Source: a virus (taxonomy: Duplodnaviria > Heunggongvirae > Uroviricota > Caudoviricetes). Taken from it: a DNA stretch of 64,000 bases. Numbering within the stretch: position 1 is the stretch's first letter; each line of letters starts with the position of its first letter. This document shows positions 1 to 64,000 of the stretch, one piece after another. The stretch lies in the IMG/VR virus record IMGVR_UViG_2541047680_000004. One strand, 5' to 3'. The position numbers and the translations under genes are program-made. A model generated the notes under the pieces. That model was not told the DNA's origin. It made no database searches and saw only the letters and a program-made list of their open reading frames with translations.

Positions 1-263
1 ATGAACCTATTAATGTCACTTACTTTTACATCGGCAATGTGCGGCAAAACATGTATCAAAATACAATGAACAGCGATCTCTGGCCGACGTCTGGTTATCA
101 GCAGAGATAAGCGAGTGAATAACAGGAATGCGTCCGAGAATCTCATGTCATTGCTGACCTGGGAGATCATAACGGCCTGCATTTGAGATGCTCTTTCGAG
201 ATACTCTATCGCCTCTTTTGAGGTGTTCTCCGCAGCGCGTGCTCTGTCAAAGCTATTTTTCAT
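1..263 (-). CDS. hypothetical protein (N-terminal part only; gene runs off the left edge)
   Basis: Minus-strand ATG at 263 followed by open frame to window edge (MKNSFDRARAAENTSKEAIEYLERAS...). Confidence 0.25.
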   Translation of the reverse strand, partial: MKNSFDRARAAENTSKEAIEYLERASQMQAVMISQVSNDMRFSDAFLLFTRLSLLITRRRPEIAVHCILIHVLPHIADVKVSDINRF

Positions 264-45984: not shown

Positions 45985-46015
45985 ATGCAGGTCTTTAAAT
46001 AAGCTCCCAGACCGA

Positions 46016-46282: not shown

Positions 46283-46291
46283 GGCAAATCC

Positions 46292-47844: not shown

Positions 47845-48542
47845 ACAGCCATCTCCCCGGAAGAGATCTTCTCCGCATATGCCACAAATGCGTCTACCCC
47901 GCTTTCTCCCGTCATTTCTTCCATGTGGGCAAGCAAATCACCAACAACAATGGCAGAGCCAGCAGGAAGCGTTTTAAAGCCCAATACGTCGACAACACGT
48001 ACTTCTTCCGCTGCAACTTCACGACTGATCTCGGTGTGTTCATCCTTCTGTCGTTTAGTTTCTTCGCCAAGATCGATAACTAGCGAGTCGGTGTCCATTT
48101 CTTCTGTCATGCTGCCAACGAGAACATTCAACTCACGCTCTTCAAAGCCGAAAACCTCGATATCGTCCAGAACAAGCGACTCAAGCTCTTTCTGTAGCTT
48201 AATTGCATCGTAATCAATGCTGGCAAGTCGGTTATCTTCAAGGCGCTTCGCACGAACCTCGTCATCACTGAGATCATCGCGAACAATAACCGGTACGCGC
48301 TCAAGTCCAGCAAAAATTGCAGCCTCACGGCGGCCGTGGCCAGTAATAATTACGTCGTTCTTATCGACCGTAATTGGCTGGTCAAATCCGCGCTTTTTAA
48401 TGGCTGCGGCTAGATCTCGGATCTGCTGTTCATCATGCTTTTTGGCATTCATCTCATAGGGAATAAGATCTGCCGGGTCGCGATATACGATTTCAAACTT
48501 TTTGGTCATTACATACGCTCCTTGTAGTAGTCGACCAGCCAC
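47841..48542 (-). CDS. ParB N-terminal domain (ParB/Srx-like) protein
   Basis: ITGHGRREAA motif resembling the ParB GxxRxxA box. Confidence 0.6.
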   Translation of the reverse strand: MAGRLLQGAYVMTKKFEIVYRDPADLIPYEMNAKKHDEQQIRDLAAAIKKRGFDQPITVDKNDVIITGHGRREAAIFAGLERVPVIVRDDLSDDEVRAKRLEDNRLASIDYDAIKLQKELESLVLDDIEVFGFEERELNVLVGSMTEEMDTDSLVIDLGEETKRQKDEHTEISREVAAEEVRVVDVLGFKTLPAGSAIVVGDLLAHMEEMTGESGVDAFVAYAEKISSGEMAV

Positions 48543-49207
48543 ACCAGAGCCTCACCAGCGTTCTCCATTTCATTACCGGTGTTAATAGCCTGCTCTTTGA
48601 TGATGTTTTTTATGGTTTCTGCAACACGATCTGACGCATCGAAAGTTACTTTGAAGCGCATGGTCTGATGTTCCGCCCCCACACGTTCGGTTTTCTCTCG
48701 TTTGTCGGTATCGACAGGCTCATCACTACCACGAGACAACGCCTCCAGTGCTTCAAGGTCGATTGCCGCCTCTTTTGCTAAAACCATCGAGATTTCGTCG
48801 TCATACGGGGCGATTTCAGACAGTTGATAGTCAAGTTCTGACTGAATTTCTTCAATGAAGCGTTGCAATGCGATTTGGTCGTCTTCACCGTATCGCTCGT
48901 TGTCCACCAGTGACATCTGTTTAGCTACGACATCGCTAATTTTGCCCACAGAAAGCACTGGAACCGTTGAAATTCCTTGCTCAATAGCGGCACGCCAGCG
49001 ATGTTCGCCGCCGAGGATTTCAAAAAATCCATCTTCAAGTTCACGAGCCAAAATTGGCTTAAAAAAGCCCAATTTTTCGATAGAACCTTTCAGTTTTTCA
49101 AAATTCTGCGCACCAACCGAATTGGTGTTCCAGGTATTCGGGCGAAGGTTGGCAACATCAACCTGCAAAATCGTGATTTTTACATCCATTTTATTGCTAC
49201 AATCCAC
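48509..49207 (-). CDS. ParB N-terminal domain (ParB/Srx-like) protein
   Basis: ILGGEHRWRAA motif resembling the ParB GxxRxxA box. Confidence 0.6.
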   Translation of the reverse strand: MDCSNKMDVKITILQVDVANLRPNTWNTNSVGAQNFEKLKGSIEKLGFFKPILARELEDGFFEILGGEHRWRAAIEQGISTVPVLSVGKISDVVAKQMSLVDNERYGEDDQIALQRFIEEIQSELDYQLSEIAPYDDEISMVLAKEAAIDLEALEALSRGSDEPVDTDKREKTERVGAEHQTMRFKVTFDASDRVAETIKNIIKEQAINTGNEMENAGEALVWLVDYYKERM

Positions 49208-49271
49208 TAAGTAATCACTTACTTATTATAATAGCCAAATAACATACAAAAGGCACTAAGGAAAGAGGTTT

Positions 49272-50831
49272 ATGACTGTTCGGATTGTATCTAACGCAGT
49301 TAATGCGCTTATTTCTGGCGCAGATGACAAGGTAAAGCAACTGGTGCAACAGATGTTGAGCTACGAAGTCGAGACTGGCGACTGGAAGGGCACAAGCACA
49401 ATGTTCAACTGGAGTAAAAACTCGTTCCCTGCAGGCTTTGCCAAGCCTGTAGCGGCGAACTTGAACAAGGCGGGCATCAAATGTGTTCATATCCGCAAAG
49501 ACAAAGCCCCGGCGCTTGGAAAACCAAATCCGGCGGTTAACCCATTCCCATACAATCCTGATTATGCGTATCAGGATCAGACTGTGGAAACACTGGTTCG
49601 AGAGGGAATGATGATTGCGCAGATCGCTACTGGTGGCGGGAAATCTAACGTTGCCTGCAAAGCAGCTGCACGTATCGGTCGAATGACATTATTTTTAACA
49701 ACCCGCTCTGTTCTGATGTTTCAAATGGCCGAAAACTTCCAGAGATCCATCGACTACCGCGCCGAAAATGGCGAACCGTGGTTAAAAGACCAAAAGGTTG
49801 GAGTCATTGGCTCGGGTGAGTTCCAGGTATCACGACATATCAACGTCGCTACAGTTCAAACTCTTGCAAGTTTCCTCGAAGAACCACCACGCGATGCAAC
49901 ACCAGATAAGAAAAGCTACCACCTCAAACGTCGGGAGTTGGTGAAACGCTTCCTTTCAAGTGTCTCTCTTCTTATTCTGGAAGAGGCGCATGAGTCTTCA
50001 GGCTCAAATTTCTATGACATCGCCAGATTATGTGTGAACGCAGACTATCGTCTGGCGCTTACAGCCACGCCGTTCATGAAGGATTCGACGGAAGCCAACA
50101 TGCGCCTGATGGCGGTGGCCGGGCGAATTGAAATTAAAGTCACAGAAAAGTACCTGATTGATCGAGGCATTCTGGCAAAGCCGTACTTCCTTTATCATAA
50201 AGTTGCCTACAAGCCAGACGAGGCCAGAATCAAGGCCGAACTTGCCAACAAACACCTCAATTTTAGAGTTGGTATGAGCACCGCCTACCAAAAGGCTTAT
50301 CAGTTGGGGATCGTGTATAATTTGGGACGTAACGAGGCCATTGTTCGCGAAGCATTGCTCTATAAGCAACATTCTCTCAATTGTATGACTCTGGTTCGTC
50401 TTAAACGCCACGGGCAAATCCTGATGGAAATGATGAAAGAGTCCGGCCTTAGAGTTGACTTCATCTATGGGGAATCTAACCAGGCGACAAGGCAAGCAAA
50501 GCTGAACAGTTTAGCGTCTGGAGAAATAGATGTTTTAATAGGCTCGACTATTCTGGATGTCGGTGTTGATGTGCCAAGCGTTGGTGCGGTCATTCTTGCT
50601 GGTGGTGGGAAAGCAGAAGTTGAAATGAGGCAGCGTGTCGGTCGTGGCTTACGAGCAAAAAAAAATCAGGCAAACGTGTGTTTTATCACTGATTTCATTG
50701 ACATTAGCAACAAATACCTGTTGTCTCACTCTTATGAGCGAAAACACATCATCGACACCACACCTGGCTTTGCAGAAGGTGTATTGCCTATTGATGGAGC
50801 ATTCGATTTTGGAGTTCTGAAACGAGATTAG
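49272..50831 (+). CDS. superfamily 2 DEAH-box helicase
   Basis: Motif I ATGGGKS, motif II LILEEAHE, motif III TATP, motif VI QRVGRGLR. Confidence 0.8.
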   Translation: MTVRIVSNAVNALISGADDKVKQLVQQMLSYEVETGDWKGTSTMFNWSKNSFPAGFAKPVAANLNKAGIKCVHIRKDKAPALGKPNPAVNPFPYNPDYAYQDQTVETLVREGMMIAQIATGGGKSNVACKAAARIGRMTLFLTTRSVLMFQMAENFQRSIDYRAENGEPWLKDQKVGVIGSGEFQVSRHINVATVQTLASFLEEPPRDATPDKKSYHLKRRELVKRFLSSVSLLILEEAHESSGSNFYDIARLCVNADYRLALTATPFMKDSTEANMRLMAVAGRIEIKVTEKYLIDRGILAKPYFLYHKVAYKPDEARIKAELANKHLNFRVGMSTAYQKAYQLGIVYNLGRNEAIVREALLYKQHSLNCMTLVRLKRHGQILMEMMKESGLRVDFIYGESNQATRQAKLNSLASGEIDVLIGSTILDVGVDVPSVGAVILAGGGKAEVEMRQRVGRGLRAKKNQANVCFITDFIDISNKYLLSHSYERKHIIDTTPGFAEGVLPIDGAFDFGVLKRD

Positions 50832-50833
50832 TT

Positions 50834-51112
50834 ATGAGTGAAAAGAAAACAACTTACTGTCAGGTAGCATTGTCTGATAAGGCCAATGACAAACTTGGAA
50901 AGTTTCAAGTGAAACTAAAAGAAAAAAATATCAAAATGTCTAAGGCTGAAGTCATAAATACCATTCTGGAACAATTGACAATGGCCGACTTTGACAAGGT
51001 TATATCTTCTGTCGGGGCTTCCGCTAAGACTCGTGAGAAAATCATGCGTATCTATGAGAACTCTAATATGACAAAGGAAGATCTCGAAACGCTATTAAGC
51101 AGATTAAAATAA
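50834..51112 (+). CDS. small ribbon-helix-helix-like protein
   Basis: 92 aa; beta-strand/helix/helix pattern TYCQVALSDKANDKLGKF...SKAEVINTILEQL. Confidence 0.35.
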   Translation: MSEKKTTYCQVALSDKANDKLGKFQVKLKEKNIKMSKAEVINTILEQLTMADFDKVISSVGASAKTREKIMRIYENSNMTKEDLETLLSRLK

Positions 51113-51180
51113 TCACGCTATCAATTAGGGAGACAAAGATGAAGTCTCCCATACTGTTCACTTTCTGTTCTAAAACTATC

Positions 51181-51603
51181 ATGAAATACTCGCTTCTCCC
51201 TCTACTAACGTTACCAGTGTTGATGCTTACCGCGTGCCAATCACGCCCAATATCAATCCATGACGCCAAACCAGCACCGCAGGCCAAAGTGTTCAAGTAT
51301 CAAAGCGCAGCGCCAGCTACGTTGGTGGTAATGAGAGACACAGGTTTTGTAGGAGCTGGATGTGATGCTTCCATTTTCATCAACGGCGAAACTGTCGCAA
51401 AACTGGCTACAGGCGAAAAAGCGACTTTCCATTTAAATGCCGGAGAATTAATTGTGGGTGCATCTCTTGAAGGTGCAGGTTTATGTGCTCTAAACCCCGC
51501 TCGTCAAGAGCGAGAAACGACTCTGAAGAATGGAGACACAAAAGCGTTCAGGGTGTTCACCAGCAATTCTGGTGACATCGACATTCTGCCAACAACTCTG
51601 TGA
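51181..51603 (+). CDS. lipoprotein
   Basis: Signal peptide MKYSLLPLLTLPVLMLTA-C lipobox. Confidence 0.55.
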   Translation: MKYSLLPLLTLPVLMLTACQSRPISIHDAKPAPQAKVFKYQSAAPATLVVMRDTGFVGAGCDASIFINGETVAKLATGEKATFHLNAGELIVGASLEGAGLCALNPARQERETTLKNGDTKAFRVFTSNSGDIDILPTTL

Positions 51604-51607
51604 TGAC

Positions 51608-52132
51608 ATGACAACCAAAGATATTACCTACGGTATCCAAGCTGAACTCTGGCCGCGAGATTACACTAACGTTGAAAAACTACTGATGTTCTGGCGCAGA
51701 GAACAAATTCCTGTAAGGGTCACTCTCGAAGATGGCCAGGCGTTTTGCATGTACGTTTATGGCCTCATGCCATCTCGTAACAAAGTTGACCTTTGCCCAG
51801 CCCCTTTTGACAAAGAAAATCGTATAAGGCTCCCACTTGAACGCATTAGTACAATTGAATCAGGTGTGGTTGACAGTATCGCTCACGATTTCAAAGGTCG
51901 ACTAACAGTTCACCCTGATTATGTCGATAATCGGCCATCACGCCGCGATTTTTTTGCAATTTGCAACCAAGCCTACAAAGCAAACAAATCTATAAGGGTG
52001 TACATGGCGGATGGCCGTGAAATTGAGGGGGTGTCAGCAGGCGCAGATGCTTGTCAGGTTACACTACGTGTCGAGAACGGTAGAAAAATAGTTGTTTTGT
52101 TCGATTGGGTTGAACGAATTTTGCCTTTTTGA
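51608..52132 (+). CDS. hypothetical protein
   Basis: 175-aa ORF (internal Met with reasonable spacing after lipoprotein stop). Confidence 0.45.
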   Translation: MTTKDITYGIQAELWPRDYTNVEKLLMFWRREQIPVRVTLEDGQAFCMYVYGLMPSRNKVDLCPAPFDKENRIRLPLERISTIESGVVDSIAHDFKGRLTVHPDYVDNRPSRRDFFAICNQAYKANKSIRVYMADGREIEGVSAGADACQVTLRVENGRKIVVLFDWVERILPF

Positions 52133-52135
52133 GTT

Positions 52136-52444
52136 ATGAAATCGATATTGTTACCACCATTATTTTTACTTTGCTCAGTTGCGGCAAATGCAATGGACTA
52201 TAAGCCTGTCATTCAGTCGCTGATGAATGACGTGTGCTCAACGTCTCAGAATGTATCAGTTTGCATGTATCAATTTTCGGCAGCCGTAAAAGCAGGAAAA
52301 GCGATAGGTGAGAATGTGGAACTGTGTAAGAAAGTGGCAAATGAAGAACGGGCAATGTTGGATTGCGAATCTAGCGAGTCATCGGCACAGTTCGTTGATG
52401 CGCTATTTGACACCAATCGTAAGGCTGTAGAGTCTGTTCAATAA
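52136..52444 (+). CDS. small secreted Cys-containing protein
   Basis: Signal peptide MKSILLPPLFLLCSVAANA; four Cys in mature part. Confidence 0.5.
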   Translation: MKSILLPPLFLLCSVAANAMDYKPVIQSLMNDVCSTSQNVSVCMYQFSAAVKAGKAIGENVELCKKVANEERAMLDCESSESSAQFVDALFDTNRKAVESVQ

Positions 52445-52458
52445 ATCTATAAGGTTAA

Positions 52459-52486
52459 TAACCGGCTAAGTCCGGTTATTATTTTT
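52459..52486 (+). terminator. rho-independent terminator
   Basis: aaccggctaagtccggtt hairpin followed by T-tract. Confidence 0.55.
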
Positions 52487-52726
52487 CACATCACTTCTTT
52501 ATATCTATAAATCAAATAATCTAAATATATAAGGTCGAAAGCCGGAATCGATTATTTATTTAGGGAACACCTTCGACGATCTCGCTTTTATTTCTAGGAC
52601 TTTCATCCCTGCAAAAAAAACTTAAAAAAACACTTGCAATCTTTTTTCGCGTATCGATAATTGAACTCGTCGAAAGCGAAGACGCTAACGACAATAAATT
52701 TTAAATTTACATAAGGAAAAATTATC

Positions 52727-53377
52727 ATGGCTAACATTATCATTTCTAAAAAGTCCATCATTGAAGCTGCATCTATTGTATCCGACGAGCTGCGCGAAAA
52801 AGCAGATCTGGCAACTCAAACATATAACGAACATTATAAAAATGGTACGCACACTAAAGCAGACAAAGCAAATATGCAAGCTGCGACCACTAAACTTGCT
52901 TACTTCATCAACAACGTCGTAAACGCAGTAGAAGACGAAAAATTATGCTCTGTTTTCTACTATGCGATTAAAGCAAGCAAACAAGCGCCAGAAGTATTTT
53001 TCCGTGATGCAATGACTAATAGTTATTCTCTGGAAAAACTGGTTTATCTGGTTAAATCAATTAAATCTGGTAAATGCGTTTATTCCGTCGCTGATATGTC
53101 TGGATCTCGTGTATTCGCTTTAATCGATATGATTAACGACGAGATCGACACGTTCACTAATGGCGCTGTTTTCGATTTAATGAATGAAGCTAAAAAAGCG
53201 TGTGAAATTAAATTGGACGCTGGCTATACTCAAGCCAACCAGTTGATCAATCTTTGCGAACGTCTTGGACTTGTTGAAAAAGTCAAAGGAGCTGGGAGTG
53301 CGAAAGCTGGTACTCAGCAATATCGCTTTATTAAAAATGATTTCTACAATTATTTAGCTGATGCTTTCAAAGCGTAA
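52727..53377 (+). CDS. hypothetical protein (AT-rich cassette gene 1)
   Basis: 216-aa ORF with AT-rich codon usage, strong RBS-like aaggaaaaa upstream. Confidence 0.5.
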   Translation: MANIIISKKSIIEAASIVSDELREKADLATQTYNEHYKNGTHTKADKANMQAATTKLAYFINNVVNAVEDEKLCSVFYYAIKASKQAPEVFFRDAMTNSYSLEKLVYLVKSIKSGKCVYSVADMSGSRVFALIDMINDEIDTFTNGAVFDLMNEAKKACEIKLDAGYTQANQLINLCERLGLVEKVKGAGSAKAGTQQYRFIKNDFYNYLADAFKA

Positions 53378-53425
53378 TTAATGGAATCAAGCGCCCACTA
53401 TGGGCGCTTTAAAGGAGCTTTAAAG

Positions 53426-53629
53426 ATGGTCAGCTATGACAAGATCCGCGCGGAATATCGCGCAAAGTATCGCGCTTATAAACTGGAATTAATCGATGAT
53501 TTGATCGCGCAACGCGACCAATTAAATTTTACGTTTTCTGATTTGCTTAACAACAAGCGAGATTGCAAGCGTAAACGTGAATACTTACGTTTAAGCGCAT
53601 TAATCGGAAAACTTCAAAATTCTATTTAA
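53426..53629 (+). CDS. hypothetical small protein (AT-rich cassette gene 2)
   Basis: 67 aa; start chosen at Met with aaggag RBS; track ORF 53381..53629 begins inside a hairpin. Confidence 0.4.
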   Translation: MVSYDKIRAEYRAKYRAYKLELIDDLIAQRDQLNFTFSDLLNNKRDCKRKREYLRLSALIGKLQNSI

Positions 53630-53648
53630 TTTTTTAAGGAGCTTAATC

Positions 53649-53879
53649 ATGTTTGTTCTTATCGCTGGCGTTAACGTCCATAATGAATATTATGTTAATC
53701 GCATCGCTGGGATCGCTGGTTACGCTGGGCGCGCAGTCGAGCTTATAGATGAAACGACGCGCAAAATTGACTTATTGAGCGACCAGGAGCGAAAAAAAGC
53801 AGACGTGAACGACGCTGATATATTTTTAATGTTAAAAGCGTTTGTAGAAATGGGATTTGAAATCAGTCTACATAAATAA
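53649..53879 (+). CDS. hypothetical small protein (AT-rich cassette gene 3)
   Basis: 76-aa ORF followed by terminator. Confidence 0.4.
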   Translation: MFVLIAGVNVHNEYYVNRIAGIAGYAGRAVELIDETTRKIDLLSDQERKKADVNDADIFLMLKAFVEMGFEISLHK

Positions 53880-53883
53880 AATC

Positions 53884-53908
53884 GAGCGCCCACTATGGGC
53901 GCTTTTTT
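53884..53908 (+). terminator. rho-independent terminator
   Basis: gagcgcccactatgggcgc hairpin + TTTTTT; same hairpin without T-tract at 53,389-53,410. Confidence 0.6.
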
Positions 53909-53930
53909 CGTTTCCAATACTCCCACCAAA

Positions 53931-53956
53931 ACGCGCCAATGATGGCGCGTTTTTTA
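53931..53956 (+). terminator. rho-independent terminator (second in tandem)
   Basis: acgcgccaatgatggcgcgt hairpin + TTTTTT. Confidence 0.55.
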
Positions 53957-54370
53957 TTGTCTTTAACTCACTCCAACAACATAAAAATAAGCGCCAAAAT
54001 AACGCCATAGACGCGCTTTTATATCCTTACCAGTACATACCCATTACTTAACACATTAACGCGCTTAAAACGCGTTATATTGCGCTATAGAGTATGGTTA
54101 ATCATTGGCTTTTAGTCTTGCTTTATGATCCGCGTTTATTTGTCGGCGCGGATCGGCATTTTGTTTTGTTCCGTATCCGCTCGCGTATTATGTGCGCGTG
54201 ATTTTTCACATAATCACACCACTTAATCACGTATGTGATTATGCTACGAAAGAAATCTGGATGTCTCAGGCGACGAAAGTCATCATAATTTTCCCCGCTC
54301 ACCTGTCCGACAACCGCTGGTTGGATTCCACCAGCTTCCCGATGTTTTTTCTACACAAAGGCGAATGCAG

Positions 54371-54450
54371 CCGTTTCCCGAAAAAATCCTGGCCGTTCCC
54401 CGTCGGCTCATGAATACGTTCCTCGCCGTTTCTGAAAATTTCCCTGCGGC
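54371..54450. repeat. iteron cluster A (3-4 direct repeats, consensus CCGTTTCCCGAAA)
   Basis: ccgtttcccgaaaa / ccgttccccgtcgg / ccgtttctgaaaat / ttccctgcgg spaced about 22-33 bp. Confidence 0.6.
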
Positions 54451-54495
54451 AGCTGGTGGCTATAGAGAAAGGGCCGTTTCTGGCCCTCTTCTCAG

Positions 54496-54978
54496 TTACA
54501 CGCCATCAAGGATGTGGATGCGGTTGCTTGCGTATACATTCAGCATAAAGTTAGCGCAAAACAGTTTCCATGTATCAACGCCAGCGGTATACGTAATGTT
54601 TTTGCATTTAATCGCATTGTTGGCGATCCGCATCCCCTGCGATACTGCTTCATCGTCGGAAAATTTGAACGACGATTGAGTTTTAATCCAGACAGAAATC
54701 TGCGTAGCAAACTCAATCAGCTTAGACTGGCAGAATCGCCCGGAGCGTACCGGGAAGACGAACGTTCCGAATCCAGAATTAACCACATATGCTTTCTCAA
54801 ATACCCTCGAGTAACGACGATTGCCAATGATGTCGCGTGCAATAATGCATTTTTCTTGTGCTGACAGTTCTACCGTCTCATTGTCGCGCCATGCACCAAG
54901 TACTCGTTTTTCAATGTCAGAGAACGTTACAGCGATATTGCCATGTGCGGGTGCGTTTACAGTAGCGATAAAATTCAT
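54496..54978 (-). CDS. hypothetical protein (small-gene cassette 1)
   Basis: 160-aa ORF; operator palindrome at 54,999-55,011 upstream. Confidence 0.45.
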   Translation of the reverse strand: MNFIATVNAPAHGNIAVTFSDIEKRVLGAWRDNETVELSAQEKCIIARDIIGNRRYSRVFEKAYVVNSGFGTFVFPVRSGRFCQSKLIEFATQISVWIKTQSSFKFSDDEAVSQGMRIANNAIKCKNITYTAGVDTWKLFCANFMLNVYASNRIHILDGV

Positions 54979-55328
54979 GATTAATTCCTTATCGTAAATA
55001 ACAAATTGTTTTCTTGTTGGTGTTAATTATCGTTGTACGAATAAGGCGTCAAAGTGGAAAGTTGCGGTAGCCGGACGGGAACAGGTGGGTTTGTCGGTTG
55101 CCTGGAGGTAAGAGGTTGGTGTTTTTAGCCTGCGGGAAACAGGATGGTCATTTAAGGCCACCAATGCTGATGGCCTTAATAATTATCGACCGATTACGCT
55201 AAGGATCTTTTCCTCAACTGATTTGTTGTTGCGACTAAACTGCCTTGCGTATCTGATGACAGAAGAGGCGTTTTGCTTTCTGACCATCTCGGCTCTTTCC
55301 TTCAGGCGTTTCTTGAAATCGCCCATAT

Positions 55329-55703
55329 TTACCACCAGGCGCAGAAGGTCAGTCTGTTATTGTGAAAGTCGTGGTTCCTGATCAGGTCTTCCACAAGTTT
55401 TTTCAGCTTATCCACGTCATGCCAGTAACCTTCGTCGTACTCCTGACTGCCGAAGAAAAAACCTTCCCGAGTAGGCAAGTACTCTTCGCAATTGCTTTCG
55501 TTTATGTGCATCAAATGAGCTTTCAGAAGACAAATGTCATTCATCGTTAATTCTAAAAGCTCACAATTTTCGACTTCACCTACGTTGCGCTCCATCCACC
55601 CAACGAGCGCATTGAACTTACGGAAGTAAGCAACCTGCTTTCTGGATGCCTCGTTATTCAGATCGTTTTTAGGCTGTGTCTCGATATAGATATCAAGTCC
55701 CAT
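55329..55703 (-). CDS. hypothetical protein (small-gene cassette 2)
   Basis: ORF with AAGGAA RBS before ATG at 55,703; operator-like palindrome at 55,763-55,775. Confidence 0.4.
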   Translation of the reverse strand: MGLDIYIETQPKNDLNNEASRKQVAYFRKFNALVGWMERNVGEVENCELLELTMNDICLLKAHLMHINESNCEEYLPTREGFFFGSQEYDEGYWHDVDKLKKLVEDLIRNHDFHNNRLTFCAWW

Positions 55704-55820
55704 GATGGTTTCCTTATTAAGTTGCTTCAGTGAAATCATTTTCACAAATCAGATAAGGCAGAAAACAAATTGTTATCGGGCATAATAAAATGGCGCGGTT
55801 TACGCGCCATTTAAAGAGGA

Positions 55821-56216
55821 TTAAGCGAATACGCTTTCAGGGATTAAGGTGTCGGCAGGAATGCCAGAGGTAATGCGCAGACCGTACTGGCCAATCCAGG
55901 TGGTGCTGGTGTTCAGGCTGGAGGCGAATACGGTGTTAACCATATTCATCATGGTTTCAAACACCTCTTCATCAACCTGGCGGAAGTAGTTCTCGATTTT
56001 CAGCAGCAGCGGGTCAGTTGCATCGAGAATGGACTGGTATTGAGTCGCGTACTCGCCGTCGGAGGCATCACCTTTACGCACGATCGTACTGGCCTGTACT
56101 TCGGCACCAGTTTCGGTGTTGTACGTAACAACGGTGATTTTTGCCACATTCTTACCTTCGGCGGTTTCAGAGGCATAGTAAACATCAACTGTCAGTTTTT
56201 CGCGTTTAACGGTCAT
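55821..56216 (-). CDS. hypothetical protein (small-gene cassette 3)
   Basis: ORF with GGAGAG RBS before ATG at 56,216. Confidence 0.45.
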   Translation of the reverse strand: MTVKREKLTVDVYYASETAEGKNVAKITVVTYNTETGAEVQASTIVRKGDASDGEYATQYQSILDATDPLLLKIENYFRQVDEEVFETMMNMVNTVFASSLNTSTTWIGQYGLRITSGIPADTLIPESVFA

Positions 56217-56342
56217 TTCACTCTCCGTAGTGTATTGGTTATTTTTATATTCTATGATCGTAAGTATGTACTTACAATACAAAAAAGCCCCGTAAGGATG
56301 GCGGGGCTGTCGTACTGTCGACTAATTACCACTTGCACATTA

Positions 56343-56654
56343 TCAGGCTATTGCCATCACTGATGCTCTCTGAATTTCTTGCTGGGCCACGCGGTTAACT
56401 TCCATCAAGGCCAGTTCGAGCTGATGTTCCGGCCACATTCTTTGAAACGCCATCCAGCCTTTTCCACGCTGGCGACGAACATTCATTACATAACGAGTAA
56501 AGGTGTTTTTATCGAAAGACACCGCTGTTTCACGGAACAGACGAATAGAGGTTCCATTGGCAACGATGTCCAGCAAAGTTAATTGAGCAACCAGCGCAGG
56601 CTTCTCTTTTCTCTTCTGGTCTTTGTCCAGACCAAGAACCAATGATTTTTTCAT
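56343..56654 (-). CDS. hypothetical protein, possible DNA-binding regulator (small-gene cassette 4)
   Basis: ATG at 56,654 lies 12 bp downstream of palindrome 56,666-56,678; terminator hairpin after stop. Confidence 0.45.
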   Translation of the reverse strand: MKKSLVLGLDKDQKRKEKPALVAQLTLLDIVANGTSIRLFRETAVSFDKNTFTRYVMNVRRQRGKGWMAFQRMWPEHQLELALMEVNRVAQQEIQRASVMAIA

Positions 56655-56665
56655 CACAACTCCGT

Positions 56666-56678
56666 AAACAACTTGTTT
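56666..56678. promoter_or_regulatory. palindromic operator-like site AAACA-N3-TGTTT
   Basis: aaacaacttgttt immediately upstream of gene start 56,654. Confidence 0.5.
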
Positions 56679-56808
56679 TCTCAATGGCGTAAATAATACC
56701 AGTAAGAAAACGGCTACAAAGCATAATGATCAGGTGTATGAGCGATATGCAGGTTCTTCCCTGCGGCTACAGATGAAGTTAAGCCAGCATTGCTGGCTTT
56801 GGTTGGGT

Positions 56809-57138
56809 TTACTCGAATACTTCAAGAAACTCCTGAACGTCCCAATGCTGGACGAGGTGAAGATAGACCTTAGAAATCACGTCATTTTCGCTATCGCATG
56901 TGAAGTAGTACTTCTGGCTGCGGTTGTATGTGTCCACACAAAATTCGCTCATATCCATAAAGTCAGCATCTTCACCCATGTCGCAAATCATCAAAGCAGG
57001 TGCATCATCACGAGTCATCAGCTCCAGCACCCATCTTGAATTAATCAGAGTGGAAGACCAACCTTCCAGCTCATAGAACTGGTCAAACTCTTTTTGAGTT
57101 AATTTCTTGATTTGGTTGATGTCGATATTTGCAAACAT
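56809..57138 (-). CDS. small acidic protein (small-gene cassette 5)
   Basis: 109 aa with about 22 Asp/Glu; ATG at 57,138 is 13 bp downstream of palindrome 57,151-57,163. Confidence 0.45.
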   Translation of the reverse strand: MFANIDINQIKKLTQKEFDQFYELEGWSSTLINSRWVLELMTRDDAPALMICDMGEDADFMDMSEFCVDTYNRSQKYYFTCDSENDVISKVYLHLVQHWDVQEFLEVFE

Positions 57139-57150
57139 AAAGCAATCCTT

Positions 57151-57163
57151 AAACAACATGTTT
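57151..57163. promoter_or_regulatory. palindromic operator-like site AAACA-N3-TGTTT
   Basis: aaacaacatgttt. Confidence 0.5.
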
Positions 57164-57499
57164 TCTTGATGGTGTTATTATCGCAATAACGCACAGGCGA
57201 AAAAGGATTTTATTCCGGTGAATATGGTTTTGGCAGTGAGTTTTCAGGTTCAGTACCGAGTATACTTTTTACATTATTCTGATTTAGTGGCCGAAGGTGG
57301 CTGGTGGGCAGAATAATCCTCTCCCCGAAAACCTACTGAAATCGATTGTGACCCGTTGGCTGTCTGGCACAATTACGCTGTAGCTGGGCATTCAGAGGGA
57401 ATCCAGCGGTAAGCAAGTCCGCCTACGTGAGCGCCTCTCTTCTTCCCGCACATTACAGGTGGGTAGCCGCAACTCTCCCTCTCGCTATACCGGTACGCC

Positions 57500-57635
57500 G
57501 CCGTTCCTGAACCGGCATCGAGCCTTTTCCCGAAATCCACACAGGCAACTCGACCGTTTCCCTGAAAACCTCCAGCCGTTCCCCGAAGGCAACCCAGCCT
57601 TTTCTGTAGCGGGATGCAACCTTTTCCCTGTATGG
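57500..57635. repeat. iteron cluster B (6 direct repeats, about 22-bp period, consensus CCGTTTCCCGAAA)
   Basis: gccgttcctgaacc, gccttttcccgaaa, accgtttccctgaaaa, gccgttccccgaagg, gccttttctgtagc, accttttccctgta at about 57,501, 57,524, 57,555, 57,576, 57,598, 57,621. Confidence 0.65.
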
Positions 57636-57749
57636 ACCGAAGGCTGACCGTAGGGGTTTTACGGGGGATAAAATCAGGAGTTGAATAAATACGAAAAAGG
57701 AGGCGACACCCCTCCTTCCCTCCCCACTTATACATACCTGGCTTCTTCG

Positions 57750-58600
57750 CTATACATGTTGTGTTTTCTTCGTGTTTTATCTGTCTCAACCTCTCTATAG
57801 GCGTTAATGCTCACTCCTTCCAGAACCTTCTATACGGCGACTATTTCTGTTGGTGAATTGGGTGTGTTGTTCTCTCTGTCGGTGTATGTGGTTTCGTTCG
57901 TTTTGCGGTGGTTCTTCTATGGGGTGTTCTCGTCGTTTTGGTGATTGTTCTTCTCCGTGTATGGAGTAATGGCAGGTGGGCGATTCCTTTCGTTATTGTG
58001 TTTGAGTTGTTTGTCTGGAGTGTGTGAAAGGCTTTTGTAGTTATTCGTGTATTGGGTAATGGCGTTTCCCGTGATTGTTATGTTTCGTGTCTTTTGGGAT
58101 TGAGAGAAACCTTGCGGTTACAGGCTTCGTTGGGGTTTCAGTGATTCTGGTGTTTCTTCGCTGTTTGGGTAATGGCGTGTCGTGGGTATCGCGCGTATGA
58201 ATGTTTTCGGATTGCCTGTGAAAGTTAGGTTGGTTGTCCGGTAGCCTGGGGAGAAGAGGTGGGTCTTTTCGGTAGCCTGCCATAAAGAGGTTGGTTGTTT
58301 TGGGTAATGGTATATGTGTTATTTAGTTGTTTTGTTATGCCTGAAAATAAGTTGTTTATATGGTTGTGTAACGCAACGGGAGCGATTTTGAGCGTGTGTT
58401 TTTGTTGGTAGTGTGTTGAGTCGTCTGTGGTGAAAATTGGACGCTGTGGCGCTATCTGCTGCGTAGAATTACGGGTATAAGAAGTGATGTGTGATAACGT
58501 CAATTTTTTAGACCAAATCGGGAGAAAGCGTTGATGTTTCGTTGATCTGTTATTTAGTTGTTTTCTTATTGGTATAAACAACCATAACCTATTGATATTT
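57750..58600. repeat. GT-skewed non-coding tract with short dispersed repeats
   Basis: Plus strand almost devoid of C-runs, rich in G/T; repeated tgggtaatgg (x4), gttatttagttgtttt (x2), ggtagcctg...agaggttgg (also at 55,060-55,130). Confidence 0.55.
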
Positions 58601-58700
58601 AATGATGTGATTGCTGGTATGGGAGGGGAGTAGTGGCGATCAACGGGTTCTTATAGAAAAGAATCAAATTGTGACCGCCATTATCAATAAGTTGCAACCG

Positions 58701-59306
58701 TTAGTTGTTCAGATAAACATTTGGAACACGGACGTAGAACTTACTGTTACCGGTAAGTTCCAGAGTAATGTTAATGTCATTACCATTGTCTAGTGTAGCC
58801 GTCGCTCTATAGAACTTATCAGTTACCTTTTCGTCAATATTAACCTTGATGCATTTCGCCGCAGTAGAACCATTATGCTCTTTCAGAATAGTTGTCACGA
58901 CAGGACATGCGGCTTCCTCAATGACGCCATCTTCCTGTTTCGGTATTACAATGAAGAATACGTAAGCCAGCAAGGTAACGACTATAATAAATGGCAGTCT
59001 ACTGCTCTTTGTTATAGTCGCACGCTTCCATAGGTAGATTGGCATGAAAACTATTCCCCATAAAATAGCAGGTGGCTCATAGCCGGATTCCGAAATCGCC
59101 ATTCTGTCAGCCACTAATAATCCGATGGCAGCTAAACTTCCAATTAATACAGCATAATTTGCATACTCTTCGTTCGGAATGCCGAAGCAAATTGGAATAA
59201 AAGCTAAAATCCACGCATAAGTGTTATTCAAAGGTTTTTTTTGTTGGTTATTGGTTTCCATCACATCCATCTCATCACTTAAATTACTTGTATATATTAT
59301 CAACAT
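58701..59306 (-). CDS. hypothetical integral membrane protein
   Basis: About 4 predicted TM helices then soluble C-terminal domain; 201 aa. Confidence 0.45.
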   Translation of the reverse strand: MLIIYTSNLSDEMDVMETNNQQKKPLNNTYAWILAFIPICFGIPNEEYANYAVLIGSLAAIGLLVADRMAISESGYEPPAILWGIVFMPIYLWKRATITKSSRLPFIIVVTLLAYVFFIVIPKQEDGVIEEAACPVVTTILKEHNGSTAAKCIKVNIDEKVTDKFYRATATLDNGNDINITLELTGNSKFYVRVPNVYLNN

Positions 59307-59382
59307 TTAACAAACATAACCTAAACACACAGCAGATATAGCATTACAAACTCATTGTGAAAACCATTATCATAGGAAACGA

Positions 59383-59568
59383 TTAGATGAGATGGTCTAA
59401 TTCATCATCTATCATGGCTTTGACGCTGGAGTCATTCACTCCATATTTATTTATGAGCTGTTTCAGCTCTGGCGAAAACTGAAGGTAGATATCGTGAGCG
59501 TTTTTCACTGTAGGTTCAACGCCACGCATTTCAAGCGCCTTTAGTAGATATGAGTCTTCTTTAAGCAT
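59383..59568 (-). CDS. hypothetical small protein
   Basis: 61-aa ORF. Confidence 0.3.
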   Translation of the reverse strand: MLKEDSYLLKALEMRGVEPTVKNAHDIYLQFSPELKQLINKYGVNDSSVKAMIDDELDHLI

Positions 59569-59604
59569 AAATTCTCCGTTATCTAGTATGAAGCGATTGC
59601 CGGA

Positions 59605-59904
59605 TTACCATTGCCAGCACTCAAGCCCTTCAACGACCGGTGCGCCACAATCAAAATGTACAGAGTCAAAGCCTACATCAAGTACTTTCTGAATGTTCGC
59701 AATCGCGCCCTCGGATATACCATATCGACGCAACTCATCTATCCAGTCATCGTCCTGTAACCCGGCGTGGACAATGCAACCGTACTCAATTTGTGAAACC
59801 CAATCCAGCTCATTGCTTGCGATCATGAATCGGCGAGCATCTTCCTCTGATGTATGAGATGAGCTGATCAATGCCACCTGGTAGGCTTGGGTAATGTTCA
59901 ACAT
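59605..59904 (-). CDS. hypothetical protein
   Basis: ORF with ATG at 59,904 located 14 bp downstream of operator palindrome 59,918-59,930. Confidence 0.4.
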   Translation of the reverse strand: MLNITQAYQVALISSSHTSEEDARRFMIASNELDWVSQIEYGCIVHAGLQDDDWIDELRRYGISEGAIANIQKVLDVGFDSVHFDCGAPVVEGLECWQW

Positions 59905-59917
59905 TTCAACCACTCCA

Positions 59918-59981
59918 AAACAAGTTGTTTTCTTATGTGGTTTATTATCTCCATCAACAAAAGGCAGAAAACATATTGTTT
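59918..59981. promoter_or_regulatory. two AAACA-N3-TGTTT operator-like palindromes at the right edge of the element
   Basis: aaacaagttgttt (59,918-59,930) and aaacatattgttt (59,969-59,981). Confidence 0.5.
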
Positions 59982-60015
59982 TAGGTACTGTGTAAATCAG
60001 AAGGGATTGTGTCTA

Positions 60016-60045
60016 TATGAAAATGCCCGGCGTGTTGCCGGGCAT
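60016..60045 (-). terminator. rho-independent terminator of metG
   Basis: atgcccggcgtgttgccgggcat hairpin followed by T-tract on the minus strand, about 20 bp past the metG stop. Confidence 0.6.
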
Positions 60046-60065
60046 TGCGAAGAGAGGTTGTTTAA

Positions 60066-62099
60066 TTACTTAACCTGGTGGCCAGGTTTAGCACCAGCAT
60101 CCGGGCTTAACAGGAAGATATCTTTCCCGCCGGGGCCAGCAGCCATCACCATGCCTTCAGAGATACCGAAGCGCATTTTACGCGGAGCCAGGTTAGCCAC
60201 CATAATTGTGTGACGACCAATCAGTGCCTGTGGGTCTGGATAAGCAGAACGGATGCCTGAGAAGACATTACGCTTTTCACCACCGAGATCCAGCGTCAGG
60301 CGCAGCAGCTTGTCAGAACCTTCAACAAACTCTGCGTTTTCAATCAGCGCCACGCGCAGGTCAACTTTAGCGAAGTCGTCAAAGGTGATGGTTTCCTGAA
60401 TCGGGTCGTCTGCCAGTGGGCCAGTTACCGGTGCGGCTGTGGCTTTCACTTCTTCTTTGGATGCTTCCACCAGTGCTTCCACCTGTTTCATATCGATACG
60501 GTTATACAATGCCTTGAACGGATTCACTTTATGGCCCAGCAGCGGTTGCTGGATACCATCCCAGGTCAGTTCTGTATTCAGGAATGCTTCTGCACGTTCA
60601 GTCAGTTTCGGCAGTACCGGTTTCAAGTAAGTCATCAGCACGCGGAACAGGTTAATGCCCATAGAGCAAATCGCCTGCAGATCGGCATCGCGTCCTTCCT
60701 GCTTCGCCACCACCCACGGAGCCTGTTCATCAACATAGCGGTTAGCCAGGTCAGCCAGTGCCATGATTTCACGGATAGCTTTACCAAATTCGCGGCTTTC
60801 CCATGCTTCGCCAATCACTTCAGCGGCATCAGTAAAGGTTTTGTACAGTTGCGGGTCAGCCAGTTCGCTTGCCAGCACGCCGTCAAAACGCTTGTTGATA
60901 AAGCCTGCATTACGGGAGGCCAGGTTAACCACTTTGTTCACGATATCGGCATTCACGCGCTGAACGAAATCCTCCAGGTTGAGATCGATATCATCAATGC
61001 GCGAAGAGAGTTTCGCAGTGTAGTAGTAACGCAGGCTGTCGGCGTCAAAATGATTCAGCCAGGTGCTGGCTTTAATAAAGGTACCGCGAGACTTAGACAT
61101 CTTCGCGCCGTTCACCGTCACATAGCCATGAACAAACAGGTTGGTCGGCTTGCGGAAGTTGCTGCCTTCCAGCATTGCTGGCCAGAACAGACTGTGGAAG
61201 TAAACAATATCTTTACCGATGAAGTGGTACAGCTCGGCGGTGGAGTCTTTCTTCCAGTATTCATCGAAGCTTACGCTGTCGCCGCGCTTGTCGCACAGAT
61301 TCTTGAAAGAACCCATATAGCCAATCGGCGCATCTAGCCAGACGTAGAAATATTTACCCGGCGCGTTCGGAATTTCAAAACCGAAATACGGCGCGTCGCG
61401 GGAGATATCCCACTGTTGCAGGCCAGATTCAAACCACTCCTGCATTTTATTTGCCACCTGCTCCTGCAACGCACCGCTGCGGGTCCATGCCTGCAACATT
61501 TCGCTGAAAGAGGGCAGATCAAAGAAGAAGTGTTCAGAATCACGCATTACCGGCGTAGCGCCAGAAACCACCGATTTCGGCTCGATCAATTCAGTCGGGC
61601 TGTAGGTCGCGCCGCAGACTTCGCAGTTATCGCCGTATTGATCCGGGGATTTACATTTCGGGCAGGTGCCTTTCACAAAACGATCCGGCAGGAACATGCC
61701 TTTTTCCGGGTCGTACAACTGAGAGATAGTGCGATTTTTAATAAAACCGTTCTCTTTCAGGCGAGTATAGATAAGCTCAGACAACTGACGGTTCTCTTCG
61801 CTGTGCGTCGAGTGATAGTTGTCATAGCTGATGTTAAAGCCTGCGAAATCAGTCTGGTGTTCCTGACTCATTTCGCCAATCATCTGCTCCGGTGTGATAC
61901 CAAGTTGCTGTGCTTTCAGCATGATCGGCGTACCGTGGGCATCGTCGGCACAGATGAAATTAACCTCGTGGCCGCGCATTCGCTGGTAACGAACCCAGAC
62001 ATCAGCCTGGATGTGCTCCAGCATATGGCCGAGGTGGATTGAGCCGTTAGCGTACGGCAGCGCGCACGTCACCAGAATTTTCTTCGCGACTTGGGTCAT
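60066..62099 (-). CDS. metG: methionyl-tRNA synthetase
   Basis: 677-aa product beginning [26 protein letters not shown] (HIGH motif) with KMSKS motif, matching enterobacterial MetG as recalled from memory; track ORF 60066..62228 has a spurious N-terminal extension. Confidence 0.95.
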
Positions 62100-62256
62100 A
62101 GTAGGCATTACTTCTTTGTAGTGAAAAGGGGCTTGATAGTAACAAAATGGCCTTATGTCTGCCATGTGATAACAGCATTTCTCATAAATGATTAAATGTC
62201 GCAGCTGGAGTACACTACAAGGCGACAATTGCGCAAATTAAAATAAAGGAGACGGG

Positions 62257-63357
62257 ATGAGCGAGTCCAAATCGCCGGATGCCCTGAGAGCAATGGTAGC
62301 CGGTACGCTGGCTAATTTTCAGCACCCAACCCTGAAACACAACCTGACTACGCTTAAAGCGTTACACCATGTTGCGTTGATGGATGACACACTGCATGTC
62401 GAACTAATCATGCCTTTCGTGTGGAATAAGCCTTTTGAAGACCTGAAAGAGCAATGTAGTGGTGATCTGCTCCGTATCACTGGCGCAAAGGCTATTGACT
62501 GGAAGCTGTCGTACAACATTGCCACGCTTAAGCGCGTCAAAAACCAACCAGGCATTAATGGTGTTAAGAATATTATCGCCGTAAGCTCAGGCAAGGGCGG
62601 TGTAGGCAAATCGTCCACAGCAGTAAACTTGGCACTGGCTTTGGCTGCTGAAGGTGCGAAAGTTGGTATTTTGGATGCCGATATCTATGGTCCATCAATT
62701 CCAACCATGCTGGGCGCGGAAAACCAACGTCCAACCTCACCGGACGGTACTCACATGGCACCTATCATGTCTCATGGCCTGGCAACCAACTCTATTGGTT
62801 ATCTGGTCACCGACGACAATGCAATGGTGTGGCGTGGACCGATGGCCAGCAAGGCGCTGATGCAGATGTTGCAGGAAACACTGTGGCCTGATCTGGACTA
62901 TCTCGTTCTCGATATGCCGCCGGGCACTGGTGATATTCAATTGACGCTGGCGCAGAACATTCCTGTAACTGGTGCGGTTGTGGTAACTACGCCGCAAGAC
63001 ATCGCGCTGATCGATGCGAAGAAAGGCATTGTGATGTTCGAAAAAGTCGAAGTGCCGGTACTAGGTATCGTCGAAAACATGAGTGTGCATATTTGCAGTA
63101 ACTGCGGTCATCACGAGCCAATTTTTGGCACCGGTGGCGCACAGAAACTGGCCGAGAAATACAACACGCAGTTGTTAGGCCAAATGCCACTTCATATCTC
63201 TCTTCGTGAAGATCTGGATAACGGAACACCAACCGTTATTAGTCGTCCAGATAGCGAATTTACGGCTATTTATCGTGACCTCGCAGATCGCGTTGCTGCC
63301 CAAATGTATTGGCAAGGTGAAGTAATACCTGGCGAAATCGCATTCCGCGCAGTGTGA
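62257..63357 (+). CDS. apbC: Fe-S cluster carrier ATPase Mrp/ApbC
   Basis: Product ...SPDALRAMVAGTLANFQHPTLKHNLTTLKALHHV... with P-loop SGKGGVGKSS and CxxC (CSNCGHH); divergent from metG as in E. coli. Confidence 0.9.
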   Translation: MSESKSPDALRAMVAGTLANFQHPTLKHNLTTLKALHHVALMDDTLHVELIMPFVWNKPFEDLKEQCSGDLLRITGAKAIDWKLSYNIATLKRVKNQPGINGVKNIIAVSSGKGGVGKSSTAVNLALALAAEGAKVGILDADIYGPSIPTMLGAENQRPTSPDGTHMAPIMSHGLATNSIGYLVTDDNAMVWRGPMASKALMQMLQETLWPDLDYLVLDMPPGTGDIQLTLAQNIPVTGAVVVTTPQDIALIDAKKGIVMFEKVEVPVLGIVENMSVHICSNCGHHEPIFGTGGAQKLAEKYNTQLLGQMPLHISLREDLDNGTPTVISRPDSEFTAIYRDLADRVAAQMYWQGEVIPGEIAFRAV

Positions 63358-63394
63358 TAAAAAGGTGGTGCAATGCACCACCTAAACAGTTCTC

Positions 63395-63784
63395 CTACAT
63401 CACAGGACAATCATCAAACTCGCCACTTCTTGCGTCGTTGATAATGTGAGTGATCACACCAAACACGGCATTGCTGCCCGTGCATCCATCATCATCCTTT
63501 GGCAATGCTTCCTTCTTACCAGTTCTTAAATCCTCCAGATGCTGACGTGGATACTTCCGGTATCTTTTTACGCGATATTCCCCATCCAGAGCACATACAA
63601 GAAGAGATCCATCAACAGGAGTCAGTGAGGAATCGACCACCAGCAATGCACCCTGCAATATTCCCTCACGATGATGACTATCAGCCGCCCTCATGAAGTA
63701 GGTCGCTGAAGGATGTCTAATTATCTGCTGATCAAGAGAAATACGGCTCTCAGCATAATCCGCCGCAGGAGAAGGGAAGCCCAT
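63395..63784 (-). CDS. UmuD-prime-like S24 peptidase-family protein (natively lacks the N-terminal arm)
   Basis: Begins MGFPSPAADYAE, matching UmuD from Gly25 onward (GFPSPAADY...HPSATYF); in-frame stop 4 codons upstream of ATG. Confidence 0.7.
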   Translation of the reverse strand: MGFPSPAADYAESRISLDQQIIRHPSATYFMRAADSHHREGILQGALLVVDSSLTPVDGSLLVCALDGEYRVKRYRKYPRQHLEDLRTGKKEALPKDDDGCTGSNAVFGVITHIINDARSGEFDDCPVM

Positions 63785-63802
63785 AATACTCGCCTCTTAA
63801 TG

Positions 63803-63818
63803 CTGTATATGCATACAG
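63803..63818. promoter_or_regulatory. LexA (SOS) box
   Basis: CTGTATATGCATACAG = CTGT-N8-ACAG, 19 bp upstream of the UmuD-prime-like start. Confidence 0.75.
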
Positions 63819-64000
63819 TATATGTTGAAGCTATATATTTTTGAACTCTATCTCTTAAAAAAGATGTTAATAAGATGCTAACTATTGAAAGGCATAAATA
63901 TATACAATTCCAACAAACGTTATTTTTAACAAATTTTTACTTCCCATTGACTTTCCCAGACTCCTTGTCTGAACTAATGTCCGCGGAAACCACTTTTTCC

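Follow-up and report, generated by a model that had tools for sequence, protein, structure and literature searches.

Towards the right-hand end of a 64,000-nt stretch of viral DNA (Caudoviricetes; IMG/VR record IMGVR_UViG_2541047680_000004; hereafter the window), a short open reading frame (ORF) that resembles umuD stands behind a LexA-type operator and converges on a host-like copy of apbC (mrp). The protein that it would encode begins at the equivalent of the residue at which UmuD is cleaved. The questions raised by this locus are what the gene is, how it came to lie beside apbC, and what a UmuD-like protein that starts in its cleaved form could do when no polymerase gene accompanies it. The range 63395–63818, singled out in a preliminary description of the window, corresponds to the humD ORF together with its operator (Table 1). 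That description holds in part, in that gene and regulation had been read correctly and the genomic context wrongly.

Table 1. Coordinates of humD, its control elements and its neighbours in the window
Feature	Position	Strand	Details
LexA (SOS) operator, predicted	63801..63820	.	core CTGTATATGCATACAG at 63803-63818; coding-strand 20-mer TACTGTATGCATATACAGCA
Sigma-70-type promoter TTCAAA-17-TATACT, putative	63817..63845	minus	consensus match
In-frame TAA	63797-63799	minus	five codons 5' of the humD ATG
Ribosome-binding site (RBS) AAGAGG	63793-63798	minus	8 nt 5' of the humD ATG; read from the sequence
humD CDS	63395..63784	minus	129 aa, ATG start, stop codon included; from the ORF list
GC-rich hairpin AGGTGGTGCATTGCACCACCT, then T run	63363..63383	.	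between apbC and humD
apbC (mrp)	62257..63357	+	convergent neighbour of humD; from the ORF list and annotation; outside the humD unit
metG (methionine--tRNA ligase)	60066..62099	minus	other half of the captured host-like module

Judged by its sequence, the gene is humD, a natively truncated orphan gene of the UmuD' type with the S24 fold that lies behind a LexA box. Its product scores 219.8 bits (E=8e-66) with the NCBIfam equivalog NF051876 ('HumD family translesion DNA polymerase'), whose cutoff is 120, and the match runs from end to end, with residues 1–129 on profile positions 1–129 of 129. The NCBIfam model for the autoproteolytic subunit of Pol V scored 87 bits, under its cutoff of 110, and the lexA equivalog TIGR00498 scored 27.2 bits, under its cutoff of 110.95; in Pfam, the protein consists of the Peptidase_S24 domain only. 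Residues 25–139 of Escherichia coli K-12 UmuD could be aligned with the humD ORF by tblastn at 42% identity, starting from HumD G2, and the best matches to solved structures were UmuD' (1umu, E=7e-23) and residues 25–136 of 8gmt_B. An AlphaFold model of HumD has a mean pLDDT of 71.6, with core blocks at 84–90 and residues 1–24 and 126–129 below 50, and its best match in Foldseek is again UmuD'. In the alignment M1-G2 of HumD falls on C24-G25 of UmuD, and S36 and K73 occupy the positions of UmuD S60 and K97, such that the likeness to UmuD holds in the form that had been proposed: the arm is missing and the Ser/Lys dyad is kept. The N-terminal arm with its Cys/Ala-Gly site for RecA*-stimulated cleavage is absent, as HumD begins at the Gly, and the N-terminal DNA-binding domain and cleavable linker of LexA/CI-type repressors are likewise absent from the 129-aa protein. 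The gene is already known and is not of a new kind, since it belongs to a named family (NF051876) and is annotated as HumD in RefSeq, where the identical protein (WP_000506720.1) is named 'HumD family translesion DNA polymerase'.

Relatives of the gene are found on a range of phage genomes. By tblastn, the gene of phage Cyrano encodes a protein of 100% identity, humD of P1, RCS47 and SJ46 follow at 91.5–93% and that of D6 at 90.7%, and the genes of N15 (gp26), phiKO2 (Gp23), HK140 and HK639 show 64–71% identity. The GenBank note on P1 HumD reads 'DNA repair; functionally complements E. coli UmuD'', and HumD has been described as an already activated short form of UmuD both in a passage of one article (PMC7092418) and in the title of another (McLenigan et al. 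1999, J Bacteriol 181:7005). P1 HumD (AAQ14181.1) and the window protein are both 129 aa long, are 91.5–93% identical and start at the equivalent of UmuD Gly25, and they share the same tail (GEFDDCPVI in P1, GEFDDCPVM here). In both cases the gene has a LexA box ~35 nt upstream, is without a umuC partner and resides on a phage-plasmid. The elements themselves differ, however, the present one being an SSU5-like phage-plasmid of siphovirus type, and so do the neighbouring genes: here humD faces the convergent captured pair apbC-metG, whereas in P1 it is situated between the divergent, LexA-regulated lxr and phd-doc. The operator reads CTGTATGCATATACAG here and CTGTATAAATGAACAG in P1.

The more distant homologues, from N15 and phiKO2 and, as 'UmuD-like' moron genes, from HK140 and HK639, are of similar design, being orphan and natively truncated, with an M-G-F-P start and an EFDD-x-P tail; they too are preceded by LexA boxes on temperate phages or phage-plasmids, often after tail-fibre genes. 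Unlike the window HumD, the N15 and HK140 proteins have Thr in place of the catalytic Ser, and in HK140 the gene takes second place in a two-gene operon, the LexA box lying between this operon and a divergent dinI and being common to both. E. coli UmuD' (1UMU, 1AY9, 1I4V) resembles HumD in its fold, in the dyad positions and in the N-terminus of the cleavage product, but it arises after translation, from a 139-aa precursor whose gene shares an operon with umuC, whereas HumD is translated directly and has no partner gene; in addition, HumD has a 14-aa acidic C-terminal extension and a small internal insertion. The umuDC-type operon of Salmonella phage vB_SosS_Oslo is comparable as an SOS-boxed S24 accessory subunit on a mobile element, yet its UmuD is the opposite of HumD in keeping the arm and the Cys-Gly site (...YLVPCGFPSP), in lying adjacent to a 422-aa UmuC, and in having no acidic tail. 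MucAB and RumAB are conventional phage- or plasmid-borne operons of this umuDC type.

Whether the truncation is native depends on where translation can begin. The ORF has the N-terminus MGFPSPAADY (coding start MGFPSPAADYAESRISLDQQ), and the earlier claim that it starts at the equivalent of UmuD Gly25 stands, as the protein opens M-G-F-P-S-P and G2 aligns with UmuD G25. On the coding strand the ATG is preceded by TAA GAG GCG AGT ATT. An in-frame stop upstream had been correctly recognized; it lies five codons before the ATG, with four sense codons between, and none of these four is a start codon. As the TAA leaves no room for an N-terminal arm, a longer, arm-bearing form of the product is ruled out, and with it the alternative upstream start that would have given a full-length UmuD. 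The layout of the coding strand before the gene can be written TTCAAA-N17-TATACTGTATGCATATACAGCATTAAGAGGCGAGTATT-ATG, and the RBS within it is conserved in Cyrano and in a relic copy of the gene in SJ46.

The operator had previously been called a perfect canonical SOS box. This is true of the core palindrome CTGTATATGCATACAG but not of the full 20-mer TACTGTATGCATATACAGCA, which agrees at 17/20 positions with the LexA consensus TACTGTATATATATACAGTA; the humD box is thus a perfect core palindrome within an imperfect full box. For the loose pattern CTGT-N8-ACAG, 0.93 occurrences are expected in the window and three are seen, which is not significant on its own because 8 of 100 shuffled sequences also reach three. 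The strict pattern CTGTAT-N4-ATACAG, with up to one mismatch allowed, was found twice in the window against 0.16 expected, a count reached by 0/100 shuffles. The box overlaps the -10 element of the putative humD promoter (itself a consensus match, of a kind that is not enriched over shuffles), and this predicted arrangement would be the classical layout of an SOS-repressed promoter. Comparison with other elements points the same way: LexA boxes are found at -32 to -37 before the humD homologues of P1, SJ46, Cyrano, N15 and Hafnia phage yong1, and in P1, N15 and yong1 the position of the box has been kept although the remaining flanking DNA cannot be aligned. The GenBank record of P1 places, 20 nt ahead of humD, a site labelled 'LexA binding site in the regulatory region of lxr and humD'. 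At the level of sequence, the humD promoter region accordingly contains a predicted LexA operator.

The absence of a polymerase gene was confirmed on both sides of humD. Downstream, no umuC-like partner is present, as had been stated, the convergent apbC being found there instead. When E. coli UmuC was used in tblastn against the window and the whole of a related 115.7-kb plasmid, the best match had E=1, and no Y-family polymerase is listed amongst the 136 annotated features of that plasmid (115,685 bp). A hidden umuC or dinB partner is ruled out by these two results, and the umuC homologue that would have marked a conventional umuDC-type operon is absent. A divergent lxr of the P1 type sharing the operator is also absent, with homology to P1 beginning at the LexA box. 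Upstream, the next annotated gene is co-oriented and ~800 bp away; within this gap there is no convincing ORF, and a search of Rfam for non-coding RNA gave only sub-threshold matches (RNAI scored 24 bits, the gathering score being 47). Beyond the gap lie co-oriented phage genes of the ead/Ea22 type. The hairpin between apbC and humD is probably a bidirectional terminator serving both genes, and in the related plasmid a further terminator-like hairpin is located ~280 bp upstream of the humD promoter (12839-12822). With such hairpins on both sides, humD can be regarded as an insulated single-gene unit.

The presence of apbC and metG next to humD had given the locus the appearance of an E. coli chromosome, and it had been proposed that humD replaces what lies next to mrp in K-12 and that a second accessory insertion follows to the right of the window. 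Neither proposal holds. The 701 bases around humD match 808 E. coli records, in which 777 of 891 places are on plasmids, and the best twenty matches are all plasmids of 100–120 kb. Positions 44000–64000 of the window are 96–98% identical, over 78–95% of the length, to phages CMS-2020a, PhiR41_1 and Cyrano, and ~82% identical over 35% to Salmonella phage SSU5. The window is also collinear with the related 115,685-bp E. coli plasmid, which encodes RepB and ParB alongside terminase, portal, capsid and tail proteins, as well as RecA, DnaE, a DnaB-like helicase, primase, ligase, NrdAB, ThyA and DfrA51. The metG-apbC pair itself has ~90% nucleotide identity to its chromosomal counterpart (present in 5426/5426 E. 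coli genomes) and is 95–99% identical to copies in 215 records, chiefly plasmids of this kind, and the homology of the module stops at the apbC stop codon. These comparisons identify the window as SSU5-like phage-plasmid DNA, with metG-apbC as a captured pair on it. An E. coli chromosomal island is ruled out, given that the best matches are plasmids of 108–117 kb and SSU5-group phages and that the chromosomal metG-apbC is at ~90%, and the idea of a second insertion is unfounded, metG-apbC being a captured module without homology past the end of apbC. The capture of this host pair by the element explains the apparently chromosomal setting.

With the gene and its setting defined, it is likely that humD is an SOS-repressed, self-contained unit whose pre-activated product joins the UmuC of the host in a Pol V-like polymerase. 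Pol V consists of UmuD'2C acting with RecA. In an undamaged cell, host LexA bound to the box over the -10 element would keep humD off, as suggested by the sequence and by the annotation of P1; upon DNA damage LexA would be cleaved and HumD made. HumD would start where RecA-mediated self-cleavage would cut UmuD, and as its start coincides with that cleavage point it should need no activation step. It would then dimerize in the manner of UmuD' and assemble with host UmuC, and with RecA, into a translesion polymerase of the Pol V type, the host supplying the polymerase subunit of which the element brings none. For both the host chromosome and the phage-plasmid, damage tolerance and mutagenesis would in this way rise sooner than through the slowly cleaved UmuD. 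The pairing with UmuC is suggested by the 92% identity to P1 HumD, whose complementation of UmuD' is published, and an action on host Pol V, one of the two functions put forward in the preliminary description, agrees by analogy with the published role of this P1 protein.

Two considerations bear on how far the pairing with host UmuC describes the natural role of HumD. P1 HumD reportedly needs a high-copy vector to complement well and is said to be poorly expressed, such that substitution within Pol V may not be its main role in nature. The related plasmid, moreover, has its own RecA and DnaE, and the partners of HumD could therefore be encoded by the element and not by the host. The C-terminus of the window protein reads ...NDARSGEFDDCPVM and ends RSGEFDDCPVM. 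Amongst the closest homologues (120 cluster representatives of at least 67% identity), M-G is found at the position of UmuD C24-G25 in 116, and a C-terminus of the form [GA]EFDDCPV[MI] is nearly universal, whilst the residue at the position of the catalytic Ser is Ser in 75 of them, Thr in 43 and Ala in two. R119, E122, D124 and P127 never vary in an alignment of 46 homologues, where F123, D125, C126 and V128 are at least 90% conserved, which places the tail amongst the most conserved segments of the protein; the catalytic-Ser position is not conserved in the same set.

A wider set of 150 representatives at 50% identity, obtained by exhaustive search, connects these features with the loss of the arm. 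Of the 150, 60 carry an arm of 14 aa or more at the N-terminus, and none of these 60 has the acidic tail. All 21 complete, natively truncated clusters start with M-G, and about half have tails of the EFDD-x-P type, including ...GGEFDDTPF. In the arm-bearing homologues the dyad is largely intact (Ser in 36/39, Lys in 35/39); in the truncated clusters the equivalent of Ser60 is Ser in only one of 21, that to which P1 and the window belong, and the equivalent of Lys97 is Lys in seven. The conserved new C-terminal peptide is thus a mark of the HumD clade. Native truncation has arisen, or spread, widely, with the dyad decaying after loss of the arm, and in HumD the Ser/Lys pair is probably vestigial. 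Tail variants of the type ...EFDDTPF bring to mind the C-terminal motif of SSB, DDDIPF (PMC5872125), a motif-level impression in which the spacing is off by one residue; most HumD tails end in M, I or L, not in F as DDDIPF does.

A tail that is conserved in HumD and missing from UmuD' points to an interaction that the UmuD' model leaves unexplained. One candidate, which is offered tentatively and at low confidence, is that the acidic tail acts as a short linear interaction motif like the tip of SSB, tethering HumD to replisome or repair proteins that bind SSB, or else to a partner encoded by the element, with the dyad being vestigial; were this so, HumD would have a function beyond plain substitution for UmuD'. 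A literature search for a mimic of the SSB tail linked to UmuD or HumD returned nothing relevant. In the model the last residues of HumD have a pLDDT below 50, and when docking of the tail was examined only one of five AlphaFold models was confident. What the HumD-specific tail does, alongside a probably vestigial dyad, is the sole subject here with some novelty, and the tail that is specific to truncated proteins, along with dyad decay, could provide a lead on how phages rewire Pol V.

The same observations would fit a broader, though unlikely, account in which HumD, once induced by SOS, acts mainly as a modulator by binding to RecA filaments or forming heterodimers with host UmuD or UmuD', its conserved tail serving as a tether to a replisome or SSB-interacting partner, with the outcome that recombination is damped, the UmuD checkpoint altered or replication of the phage-plasmid shielded during damage. 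Such a role would agree with conservation of the tail (with its four invariant residues in 46 homologues) alongside a catalytic Ser that is not conserved, with the restriction of the tail to natively truncated homologues (0/60 arm-bearing representatives), with the low model confidence of the extreme tail, as expected of a flexible peptide, and with the RecA and replication proteins that the element carries for itself. The likeness of the ...EFDDTPF variants to the SSB motif (PMC5872125) can be added on the same side, but it is a motif-level one, with its spacing off by one and with tails ending mostly in M, I or L, and the reported complementation of UmuD' by P1 HumD suffices to explain why the gene has been retained. 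Partnership with host UmuC remains the preferred reading.

The other function put forward in the preliminary description, that of a LexA- or CI-like decoy or repressor-like protein that either binds DNA or is a rival substrate in RecA*-stimulated cleavage, is very improbable. It draws on the S24 fold common to LexA and lambda CI and on the retention of Ser36 and Lys73. HumD, however, has neither the N-terminal DNA-binding domain (compare the 27.2 bits with TIGR00498 against 110.95) nor an Ala/Cys-Gly cleavage site, and a protein that begins at the Gly cannot serve as a competing cleavage substrate. In most truncated lineages, furthermore, the dyad has been lost (Ser 1/21, Lys 7/21), which argues that protease chemistry is not the function under selection.

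Comparison of the coding sequences indicates how strongly the gene has been maintained. The window humD and P1 humD share 84% of their nucleotides and their products 91.5% of residues, with dS=0.99, dN=0.042 and dN/dS=0.043, and the window gene differs from that of Cyrano at 12 synonymous and 0 non-synonymous sites, all of which shows strong purifying selection on humD. The suggestion that humD is a functionless, decaying remnant of a umuDC operon from which the 5' end and umuC were deleted, as the missing arm and missing umuC might imply, is effectively refuted by these selection and conservation data, namely a dN/dS of 0.04 over a dS of ~1, a start exactly at the G25 equivalent in 116/120 homologues and 21/21 complete truncated clusters, the possession of its own RBS, operator and terminator, a family-specific C-terminal extension that was gained and not lost, and a functional orthologue in P1.

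The gene also shows signs of movement between elements. DNA homology to P1 extends from the LexA box to the humD stop codon, and operator and gene can on this basis be viewed as a mobile unit. The P1-like phage SJ46 shares a further ~250 bp upstream of humD in the form of a relic, situated 1.4 kb from SJ46's own humD, in which half of an SSU5-type operator survives together with the RBS and the first codons. The humD cassette of operator, gene and terminator thereby offers a documented case of transfer between the unrelated P1-like and SSU5-like phage-plasmid lineages. Elements of both types also spread resistance genes, and the carriage of an SOS-inducible, pre-activated mutagenesis factor hence bears on stress-induced mutation in clinical E. 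coli. The relic in SJ46 itself is best read, from its remaining parts, as the trace of a recombination between P1-like and SSU5-like phage-plasmid lineages.

The HumD protein and its relatives were compared across a protein set comprising P0001 and P0121-P0269, with attention to residues 36, 73 and 116-129 of the window protein. Among the natively truncated UmuD' homologs, the serine of the catalytic dyad was kept in 1 of 21 clusters and the lysine in 7 of 21; for homologs that bear the UmuD-type N-terminal arm, the corresponding counts were 36/39 and 35/39. Judged from these alignments, the catalytic dyad is mostly gone from the natively truncated forms. A conserved acidic C-terminal tail, whose sequence is reminiscent of the C-terminal tip of SSB, is confined to truncated forms (0/60 arm-bearing homologs).

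The genetic setting of humD and its homologs was examined in related elements and in the window (see table). The lambdoid phage HK140 has its HumD homolog in second position within a small operon; the LexA box of this operon (1221-1236) is common to a divergent dinI gene, such that one operator serves two modulators of RecA and the SOS response. Related plasmid NZ_JBWDPU010000001.1, which is of the same phage-plasmid type as the window, encodes its own RecA and DnaE (Pol III alpha), the dnaE copy being interrupted by IS100, alongside a helicase, a primase, a ligase, NrdAB, ThyA and DfrA51. With a RecA encoded on an element that also carries an orphan UmuD'-type gene, it may be asked whether HumD partners this RecA or another.

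A relic in the P1-like Salmonella phage SJ46 retains a DnaA-box-like TGTGGATAA stretch, half of a LexA box, a ribosome-binding site and an ATG, and lies 1.4 kb from the phage's own humD, with two divergent genes intervening. That this phage holds a remnant of the region upstream of an SSU5-type humD suggests that P1-like and SSU5-like humD cassettes have recombined in the past. In the gap upstream of the SSU5-type humD itself, a search for open reading frames found nothing convincing; a terminator-like hairpin is located at 12839-12822 of the related plasmid locus (L001), and Rfam gave nothing above threshold in the gap, an RNAI-like match (12815-12904) scoring 24 bits where the gathering score is 47.

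Features of the window and of related elements
Feature	Location	Strand	Basis or remark
Relic of SSU5-type humD upstream region	Salmonella phage SJ46 (L007) 4349-4583		
RecA and DnaE genes	NZ_JBWDPU010000001.1 (L004) 4413-5486 and 12211-15099		Related plasmid, outside window
AT-rich gap, ~800 bp, upstream of humD	L001 12486-13281 (window 63785-64000 and past its right end)		
Second strong LexA-type box, caCTGTATAAGTAAACAGta	Window 292-307 (flanks 290-309)		Pattern search of window
metG-apbC pair	Window 60066-63357		Nucleotide comparison with E. coli genomes
tRNA cluster (Ser-tga, Thr-tgt, Tyr-gta, Asn-gtt)	Window 2349-3002	minus	Four tRNA genes found in window
Small operon with HumD homolog	Phage HK140 (L010) 910-1890		

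The second LexA-type box precedes by ~29 nt the ATG (263..261, minus strand) of a tyrosine recombinase/integrase gene that is incomplete, extending beyond the left end of the window. The recombinase of the phage-plasmid may, like humD, be under SOS control. The metG-apbC pair shares ~90% nucleotide identity with its chromosomal counterpart, which is found in 5426/5426 E. coli genomes, whilst copies at 95-99% identity to the window occur in 215 records, mostly plasmids; the similarity stops precisely at the stop codons of both genes. On sequence grounds, the pair is a captured, host-like module, and a full methionyl-tRNA synthetase is an unusual cargo for a phage-plasmid. The four-tRNA cluster is annotated in the related plasmid as well.
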